Below, in pieces: positions 1-1,295 of a stretch of DNA of 15,119 bases. This DNA comes from Candidatus Heimdallarchaeota archaeon B3_Heim. Lineage in GTDB: Archaea; Asgardarchaeota; Heimdallarchaeia; Hodarchaeales; Hodarchaeaceae. Below the pieces are notes generated by a model. That model was not told the DNA's origin, ran no database searches, and saw nothing but the letters and a program-made list of their open reading frames with translations. The stretch spans positions 1 through 15,119 of the forward strand of contig NJBF01000059.1 in assembly GCA_003144275.1 (NCBI GenBank), given 5' to 3'. Position 1 is the first letter of the stretch. The number at the start of each line of letters is the position of its first letter. The position numbers and the translations under genes are program-made.

Positions 1-427
1 TTGGCTGATCTACGAGTTTATCATTTAATACTGGTTGCTTCTGTAGTTCCTCAAATGGGTACAATCGGACTTTCCCCTCTATCTCAAGAACTAAAGTAAG
101 AGCTTTTACATCGTATAGATTGTAAGGAGCTTCATTAGGTTTAAAGGAAGTTCGAAACCAAATAGATGATCTCTCTCGATATCCTGGATAGGTATTCGAG
201 TTGTAAGTTTCATCTGCATATTTTCCTGAGGCTCTGTCTAAAATGACTGTGTCAGGATATAATGTCTTCCACGCTTGCCATGTAGTTTCTGTGATTGCCT
301 GGATTGGGAGTTGTTGACCAATTTTTTCTCCTTTCAGGCTAACACCTAACATCTGTCTCCACAAACTATCAGAAATTCGATCATAAAATACAAGGTTATT
401 TTCATAGAGTTTGCCTGATGTTCCAAG
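1..427 (-). pseudogene. DUF3179-family protein, C-terminal part (downstream of the insertion; continues off the left edge)
   Basis: My translation of 427->1 is open throughout: LGTSGKLYENNLVFYDRISDSLWRQMLG...TETTWQAWKTLYPDT... This resembles the GxSGxLYxxNLxxYDRxTxSLWxQ and TTWxxW motifs of DUF3179. Not in the ORF track because it has no start codon and runs off the window. Confidence 0.88.
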
Positions 428-450
428 GGGTCAATACTGTTGTCGGATAG

Positions 451-494
451 ATTGACAGATATGGACATTTATAGACAACTAGGACAAGATGACA
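451..494 (+). repeat. Five phased GACA-core direct repeats at the element left end (putative TnpA binding motifs)
   Basis: GACA at 454, 464, 474, 483 and 491 (spacing 10, 10, 9, 8): attgacagat/atggacattt/atagacaact/aggacaagat/gacatt. Inverted TGTC copies occur at 441-444 and 866-869. Confidence 0.7.
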
Positions 495-704
495 TTACGG
501 AATGAAGAGAAATAGAAGGCAGGATATCTTAGGAGAAGGGAGTCGAGATTAAAATACATGGTTAACAGCGTGTTCAACCGATCTCATGGGATTATACCTA
601 AAATGACGCGCTAAATAACTTCTTGATATTAGAATAACGGGAAACAAGCAAATTTGTTTTAGATTACAGGGTTAGTAGGTTTATTAGAAGAAAAGCTACT
701 AATC

Positions 705-893
705 AATCAGGAAAGTCATGTGTCTTTCCTGTCGCCGAGAGTTCTGCGGAGACCTTAAACGCCTGTGGAGAGGTGGTAAGACCGGCATTAATGCCGGCTC
801 GCGTCGTTGAATCAGGAAGAACAGCGCCAAATAGTTAAGAATAATTTGGAAAAATTATTCCTCGCTGTCCTATTTGGGTAAGTCTTTCAGAAC
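705..893 (+). ncRNA. TnpB omegaRNA (reRNA)-like scaffold; the guide would be the flanking host DNA from about 894-915
   Basis: Contains aacgcctgtggagag...gtaagacc-[hairpin]-tcgttgaatcaggaa, which resembles the ETLNACGE...SLxQE region overlapping TnpB 3' ends. Hairpins: 708-715/724-731, 782-797 (16-bp palindrome), and 839-847/852-860 (GGAA loop). It abuts the right end. The 5' boundary is uncertain. Confidence 0.68.
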
Positions 894-1295
894 GGTAGCA
901 CCTCCAATACTTGAGGTATCATAAAGAATATCTGTACCAGTTAAGGGACAGAAAGTAATACATACATGCTCATCATTGAATTCATCGTTTACAGTCTCAT
1001 GCCAATTAAGTATATCACGAGGATACGCTCTAGCTTCGCCATCAATGACGATTCCCAGAATATAAAGACTATCTAGATCACCTGTATATTCTGATTCAAA
1101 TTCTGTTATTTCTAAAAATGTTGGGTTGTCGATTGAAGGGATGCTATCTGGGGGAGGGCCACCACCTATGATGTCATCACAAGGAACAAAACAATCGTCT
1201 GCTTTTGCAATAGCTGTAAAAGTGACTGTTAAGAGTAGTAGAGAAGTTATGAGAAGAAATTCTCCATAAAAATTAGAATTTTTGCGATTTTTCAT
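894..1295 (-). pseudogene. DUF3179-family secreted protein, N-terminal part (interrupted; the tracked ORF 870..1295 ends inside the insertion)
   Basis: Signal-peptide-like N-terminus (MKNRK...LLITSLLLLTVTFTAIAKA), followed by GGPPPDSIPSIDNP, ARAYP, LNWHETVND and TFCPLTGT motifs. The last 7 residues (VLKDLPK) and the TAG at 870-872 come from the inserted element. Confidence 0.88.

Follow-up and report, generated by a model that had tools for sequence, protein, structure and literature searches.

The window analyzed here, the whole 15,119-nt stretch of contig NJBF01000059.1 from Candidatus Heimdallarchaeota archaeon B3_Heim, opens with a gene of the DUF3179 family that is present in two pieces on the minus strand. 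Between the pieces lies a segment of 466 bp (430-895), in which ~285 bp of left end (LE) are followed, after a short junction, by a 166-nt block made up of the tail of a tnpB gene and a right end (RE) (Table 1). Open reading frames inside 430-900 do not exceed 43 aa, and a tRNA scan found none. This segment is almost certainly a non-autonomous miniature derivative of a TnpB insertion sequence that contains an omegaRNA-type scaffold. The host is an Asgard archaeon, a possibility raised in the preliminary description of this DNA: MAGs of the same genus, linked to it through identical loci, carry the names Candidatus Heimdallarchaeota, Hodarchaeota and Promethearchaeota in public records.

Table 1. 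Features of the mini-element and of the interrupted gene (positions in the window)
Feature	Position	Strand	Remarks
C-terminal DUF3179 part	2..429	-	Pfam PF11376 profile positions 106-217; runs off the window
Left target flank AAGGG	425..429	+	Predicted TAM; ends in the GG core dinucleotide common to the RE
Left end (LE)	430..715	+	Homologous to a ~325-bp region upstream of tnpB in full-length copies
Subterminal inverted repeat, left arm CAACTAGGACA	476..486	+	Within phased GACA repeats
TATA-like box TTTATTAG (TTTATAAG in most copies)	680..687	+	Predicts an archaeal transcription start near 708-712
Deletion junction	702..731	+	LE motif AATCAATCAG, then a clade-specific hairpin 708-718/721-731 (pair I3)
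omegaRNA-type scaffold	730..895	+	Relic of the tnpB 3' end (residues ~383-420) plus RE, ending ...CAGAACGG
Subterminal inverted repeat, right arm TGTCCTATTTG	866..876	+	Pair I1
Predicted guide TAGCACCTCCAATACTTGAG	896..915	+	Host DNA just 3' of the RE; flank-derived
N-terminal DUF3179 fragment	897..1295	-	Pfam PF11376 profile positions 2-80; ORF continues into the element, stop at 870-872

Boundaries of the mini-element and its empty site

Homology to the region upstream of tnpB begins where ...A(A/G)GG is followed by GTTG..., and the mini-element therefore spans 430-895. Left ends of 11 copies were aligned, and blastn against the full-length copies covered reference positions -1622 to -1366. 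A GGTTTATAAG block is kept in every aligned left end. Inspection of 12 left junctions yielded the consensus A-R-G-G directly before GTTG or GTCA, with AAGGG in the window. On the right, the element had been taken to end at 893; this is 2 nt short, since similarity to other copies extends to 895 (...ACGG, with the ambiguity of the GG), whereas the guide proposed on that basis stands and corresponds essentially to 896-915. The arms of an 11-nt subterminal inverted repeat are 91% complementary, and a transposase might bind at the left arm. The 9-nt sequence AATCAGGAA is repeated exactly and in direct orientation, at 705-713 (LE/junction) and at 810-818 (scaffold).

The insertion point is a GG inside the DUF3179 gene, ...CCAAG[GG]TAGC.... 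Removal of 466 nt restored a continuous minus-strand reading frame in which ...LYDTSSIGGAT is joined to LGTSGKLYENN..., and a congener carries an intact gene to which the joined sequence could be aligned gap-free at the junction (76% identity over 817 nt). A third, independent line of evidence is a 6557-nt contig from a marine-sediment metagenome (run of 2016): it matches the flanks at ~95% identity and passes from position 427 straight to 894, skipping the 466 nt. Two letters at this joint fit either side, the ambiguity being the GG present at both junctions. This contig is a natural empty site, ...CCAAG[GG]TAGCACC.... Three further sequencing runs (X1-X3) contained only short, partly fitting pieces of related copies. 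Thus, in this genome the insertion has turned the DUF3179 gene into a pseudogene, and intact versions are present in the sediment contig and in the congener. The preliminary description had placed a transcript of the element antisense to the 5' part of DUF3179. The orientation is correct, but the gene itself is split by the insertion.

The tnpB relic and its intact paralogs

Positions 731-784 translate as VAESSAETLNACGEVVRP. An intact paralogous TnpB of 426 aa encoded on contig C82 of the same genome (P0001) ends in ...FPVAESSAETLNACGEAVRPASEQARIDESGRTAPRTVCNNCS and contains ...LDRDQNAAFNVANYYTIYQFLLFPVAESSAETLNACGEAVRPASEQ... in its tail region. The motif spotted in the first reading of the sequence is thus the C-terminal tail of TnpB, a match far beyond chance. 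The SLNQE string noted in a second frame is likewise present, at 805-819 rather than 804-818, one base from where it had been placed. An in-frame TAA occupies 635-637, and the upstream region is devoid of a RuvC-III block or Zn-ribbon, both as originally described. A tblastn search of the window with TnpB recovered residues 383-420 only, at 722-835.

P0001 contains the domains OrfB_IS605, Cas12f1-like TNB and HTH_OrfB, carries DRDQNAA and scores 262 bits on the NCBIfam model guided_TnpB (cut-off 100). Genome-wide there are 19 matches to PF07282, and those adjoining the five contig-complete full-length copies of this family fall in open reading frames of 428-463 aa that are uninterrupted by stop codons. 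The paralogous TnpBs retain the RuvC motifs. Their nearest natural relative of solved structure is ISDra2 TnpB (E 2e-47); a higher score was obtained for one AI-designed nuclease. For Mimivirus Fanzor2 the alignment was confined to the RuvC/Zn part (E 3.8e-9), and bacterial homologs reach up to ~50% identity. By these comparisons the family's TnpB is of an ordinary prokaryotic type with no specific bearing on the origins of Fanzor. The relevance to Fanzor evolution suggested earlier is not upheld, the protein being far closer to ISDra2 TnpB than to Fanzor2.

To survey the family, the genome (3.95 Mb in 103 contigs, 94% complete, 36% GC) was searched by blastn with window positions 640-930 as query and with a covariance model, R1, described below. 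Together these searches identified 18-19 copies, 8 of them full-length and ~10 without tnpB. The host genome thus contains the cognate tnpB that had been anticipated, in eight paralogous copies. Intact tnpB precedes the copies on C63, C61 (two copies), C38, C96, C82, C48 and C25, two of which are truncated by contig ends. No more than ~45 codons from the end of the gene remain in the window and in the copies on C54, C62, C24, C68 (two copies), C101, C96 (C96b), C82 (C82b) and C93; C92 carries an additional degenerate copy. In the eight full-length paralogs the block spans TnpB residues ~383-426 and ends at the RE, and the window block is 82-86% identical to their scaffolds. Every copy ends in ...GGGTAAGTCTTTCAGAACGG (window: 895), and the 3' flank after the GG is unrelated in each. 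A fixed right end followed by a variable flank is the anatomy of a TnpB RE with a flank-derived guide. Among relatives, at least 13 of ~26 assessable copies have no tnpB upstream.

One arrangement on C96 (23420-25300; loci L154, L015 and L010) combines both types of copy. Here a mini-element encloses a full-length tnpB element, the RE of which ends at 23643; pieces of the mini LE are found upstream of the LE of the full element, and the mini scaffold (23420-23604) begins 38 nt after the RE of the full element. The arrangement resembles a nested insertion immediately ahead of the TATA-like box of the mini-element, and not a designed two-guide array.

The scaffold has a conserved predicted fold

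The region 690-915 folded better than all of 200 shuffled versions (z = -3.1). The covariance model R1 was built from 17 copies of the own genome and comprises 168 positions with 35 pairs; the window copy scored 185.7 bits. R1 matched at 19 places in the own genome and in 11 of 24 genomes of the order, with weaker matches in 35 of 151 sampled Asgard genomes. These weaker matches (40-70 bits), often 5-18 per genome, occurred in 13 of 52 sampled Asgard genera. Right ends of related TnpB elements are therefore common across the phylum and present in many copies.

Covariation was evaluated on 58 aligned matches (49 distinct). Note that this alignment was fitted to the model, which favours structure, yet the margin over controls with slid partners was large: 91% of cells were paired (controls 37-47%), 18 pairs had changed on both sides (controls 7-11) and 93 cells were doubly changed (controls 11-33). 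None of 500 shuffles reached the observed covariation values. Helices 1-3 fall within coding sequence in the full-length copies, a constraint from which the orphan copies, those without tnpB (n = 24), are free. The 24 orphans alone were 88.7% paired, with 16 double-changed pairs, as compared to 93.5% for the tnpB-linked copies. All 24 orphans examined keep model positions 1 to 168.

Thus, the view that the locus carries a TnpB omegaRNA-type scaffold without its nuclease is borne out by homology to the tnpB 3' end and RE and by a covariation-supported structure. With regard to curated omegaRNA models, no Rfam family reached its gathering score over the window, and extending the search to E values of up to 10 over 400-1300 returned chance-level matches only.

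Loss of tnpB and subsequent spread

A tree was computed from the scaffolds of 43 copies. The label orphan or full-length changes 8 times on this tree, with at least 3 changes forced by the well-supported branches alone. The window copy belongs to a clade (support 100/98) that comprises six orphans, two of them from a congener and the other four from this genome; all six have one LE-RE junction in common and differ in their flanks. Six mini-elements sharing a junction at different sites indicate that the mini-element itself transposed after the loss of tnpB. What had initially been read as an orphan omegaRNA kept after loss of the nuclease is not a stranded leftover: the element is complete, with both LE and RE (430-895), and its lineage moved after tnpB was gone.

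In several orphan lineages the deletion breakpoints cluster near -1366 in the LE (~45 nt ahead of the tnpB start codon) and at -167 to -180 towards the RE. The LE of full-length copies contains ATCAATCAGT, and ATCTATCAGT precedes their scaffold by ~15 nt (repeat ATCWATCAGT). Recurrent deletion between these direct repeats is plausible from the sequence. The clustering of breakpoints at a direct repeat means that retention of the whole scaffold could be mechanistic, and an argument from selection is weakened accordingly. 

These observations bear on whether the mini-element is an inert hitch-hiker, a deletion product that a transposase moved in trans and that keeps its omegaRNA part because of direct-repeat deletion and youth. 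Such an element would be neither transcribed nor used by TnpB, and would gain no advantage in retention. Besides the shared breakpoints of several orphan lineages at ATCWATCAGT, this reading draws on some orphans with long terminal branches (0.27-0.45) and on an orthologous orphan found in two congeners (L166:1501-1658 and L167:1501-1656; identical 3' flank). Between these two the scaffold is the most diverged part, with 64-70% identity as compared to 76-86% for the LE and 88-98% for the flanks. Such decay argues against lasting purifying selection on a fixed copy; however, decay after fixation is expected of a selfish homing-type module and of junk alike. Against inertness stand the retention of model positions 1 to 168 in 24 of 24 orphans, their pairing with compensatory changes and the conserved TATA-like box ~45 nt upstream of the scaffold. 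Moreover, a characterized IS607 element can be excised with no more than 40 bp of LE and ~60 bp of RE (bioRxiv 10.1101/2023.11.20.567912), far less RE than the orphans have kept. On balance, we regard an inert hitch-hiker as somewhat unlikely.

The ends point to IS607-type mobility

The GG dinucleotide is invariant at both junctions in all copies (LE, ...RGG followed by GTTG; RE, ...ACGG). A characterized IS607 element has a strict GG core at both ends and short inverted motifs close to them, and uses TGGG as target and TAM (bioRxiv 10.1101/2023.11.20.567912). IS607 TnpA was detected above the curated cut-off in four of five relatives. In a congener (loci L059/L184, contig JBHLMN010000026.1, 1-2450), an IS607 tnpA fragment runs into a tnpB, with overlap of stop codon and ATG; the fragment is cut by the contig end and contains an in-frame TGA. 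The linked TnpB is 60% identical to P0001, and its RE matches R1 and ends in GGAACGG. On the same contig, 668 nt after this RE (at 1645), there is a second scaffold copy without tnpB (2313-2448).

No IS607 TnpA_S was found in the own genome or in any of its copies, and the 94%-complete assembly holds no transposase for this TnpB family. The IS607 tnpA loci of relatives other than L140 showed no similarity to the ends of the mini-element. The only serine recombinase of the genome was considered as mobilizer and rejected, since it is of the Hin/resolvase type with a C-terminal HTH_7 and lies beside a reverse transcriptase. At this locus (L050; C2:5532-7731) the reverse transcriptase (416 aa, PF00078) is convergent with the recombinase, and the locus may be retron-like or another retroelement.

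The alternative is an IS200/IS605-type PATE, in which a Y1 (HUH) TnpA reads single-stranded ends, ARGG being the TAM and ACGG the transposon-encoded cleavage motif, and the shared GG reflects this recognition. Insertion without duplication is compatible with both mechanisms, and ISDra2 TnpB, the nearest solved relative, stems from an IS200/IS605 element. P0001 also scores higher on the NCBIfam model IS200_TnpB (270.6 bits) than on IS607_TnpB (224.3 bits, where the cut-off of 350 is not reached). However, we rejected this score order as a means of typing the element, as the tnpA_S-linked TnpB of the congener shows the same order, with 256.3 bits on IS607_TnpB (again below the cut-off of 350) and a higher score on IS200_TnpB. 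The order found for P0001 is thus no evidence against IS607, and the test has little power in this clade. A Y1 transposase (PF01797) is absent from the own genome (94% complete) and from four of five relatives, only one having such an enzyme. Although the window LE can form GTCAAT...ATTGAC, other copies differ, and no conserved subterminal hairpin was seen in the alignment of 11 left ends; the hairpins of the RE belong to the RNA model. Together with the GG at both junctions, these findings make an IS200/IS605-type PATE unlikely. The element is probably mobilized in the IS607 manner. The earlier assignment to IS607 accordingly receives support from the GG ends and the tnpA_S-linked sister clade, but lacks a tnpA_S in this genome.

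Predicted activity of the orphan RNA

A series of steps would account for the present locus. An internal deletion between the ATCWATCAGT direct repeats would have removed tnpB and fused the LE, with its TATA-like promoter, at a point ~20 nt upstream of the 166-nt scaffold/RE. A serine recombinase would then have moved the element at the GG core into the DUF3179 gene, splitting it. As the LE repeat lies ~23 nt after the conserved TATA-like box, a transcript of the mini-element would start near 710 and run into the scaffold, so as to comprise the scaffold and a guide (896 to ~915). Guides of published TnpB systems are 16-20 nt long. The assignment of the box as a promoter follows archaeal promoter geometry and is to be read as a prediction. 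In full-length copies (for example at L143, minus strand), the codons for NYYTIYQF read AATTATTATACTATCTATCAG. This TATA-like run, ~45 to 15 nt ahead of the scaffold, is positioned such that transcription could begin at the scaffold; that it serves as an internal omegaRNA promoter of these copies is speculative.

One of the eight intact paralogous TnpBs might load the RNA of the mini-element, and the complex would cut element-free alleles at the TAM ARGG (here AAGGG) followed by TAGCACCTCC..., the predicted target being AAGGG plus TAGCACCTCCAATACTTG. The guide would match the element-free allele beside a G-rich motif, as had been anticipated, and that allele exists in a public metagenome. Given ARGG on the left and ACGG on the right, the occupied site would differ from the empty site at position -3. 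Cutting would favour copying of the mini-element back into the empty allele by repair, as has been shown for full TnpB elements. A search of the own genome for off-targets of the guide (up to 3 mismatches over 16 nt) gave chance-level matches only and was uninformative.

A working RNA is favoured by the intact scaffold, the promoter-like box, the eight tnpB paralogs, an RE in excess of need and an empty allele that presents TAM and guide. We consider the odds evenly balanced as to whether the orphan RNA functions in trans with a paralogous TnpB. For the chain as a whole, comprising an IS607-type mini-element, use of the promoter, loading in trans and TAM-dependent cutting, we lean towards its being correct.

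A further possibility is that the host has domesticated the RNA, which would either regulate DUF3179 in antisense or direct a TnpB-like repressor that is nuclease-dead. Both the guide and read-through RNA, if any, would indeed be antisense to the 5' part of DUF3179, but the insertion has already split that gene. Furthermore, the paralogous TnpBs keep their RuvC motifs, the flank differs from copy to copy and old orphans decay. Domestication by the host is therefore highly improbable.

Relation to known systems

PATE-like elements without coding genes were described in Geobacillus stearothermophilus by Meers et al. 2023, who state that PATEs often encode omegaRNAs requiring TnpB in trans (bioRxiv 10.1101/2023.03.14.532601). 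The concept of trans-acting PATE omegaRNAs is thus already published, and the novelty implied by the preliminary description cannot be claimed for it. Like the G. stearothermophilus PATEs, the window element has no protein-coding gene, shares its LE and RE with tnpB-bearing elements of the same genome and would rely on TnpB in trans. In contrast to them, it has a GG core, resides in an Asgard genome without a Y1 transposase (IS607-like) and retains ~285 bp of LE with a TATA-like box, and a natural empty-site allele is documented.

With the IS607 CboIStron (TnpA_S, TnpB and omegaRNA; bioRxiv 10.1101/2023.11.20.567912) the element has in common the GG at both junctions, a G-rich TAM (ARGG predicted, TGGG published), short inverted motifs near the ends and a guide taken from the flank 3' of the RE. 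Unlike CboIStron, it is without tnpA_S, tnpB and group I intron, and its TAM is predicted from junctions only. As to the ISDra2 TnpB-omegaRNA complex (PDB 8EXA, 8H1J, 8BF8), the paralogous TnpB aligns with it over residues 1-406 at the E value given above, and both have a C-terminal ...LNA.G..VRPAS tail that overlaps the 5' part of the omegaRNA. ISDra2 differs in using a Y1 TnpA and the TAM TTGAT, whereas the window scaffold matches no curated model and the window copy has no protein.

Within the set of papers searched, nothing relevant came up on TnpB in Asgard archaea or on orphan omegaRNA MITEs, which is not proof of absence. The novelty lies in the host, an Asgard archaeon, in ends resembling those of IS607, in an empty allele that is documented, and in the evidence that a mini lineage has spread on its own.

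In conclusion, the locus presents a clean natural case of an element that has lost tnpB and still carries a guide-RNA module. With the occupied allele in the window and the empty allele on the metagenome contig available for comparison, the predicted TAM and target are explicit and testable. The current picture of TnpB biology is unchanged, and no specific link to Fanzor origins emerges; the finding adds Asgard archaea, and probably IS607-type mobility, to the known range of omegaRNA-only mini-elements. Tentatively, guide-only mini-elements composed of promoter, scaffold and ends may be self-propagating lineages in this Asgard genus, about as numerous as the nuclease-bearing elements, that act as parasites on TnpB and on a serine transposase supplied from elsewhere, and every copy would give the shared nuclease another guide. 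We consider this possible rather than probable. If true, it would represent a natural state of one nuclease with many dispersed guides, which would be of interest for the origin of guide arrays.
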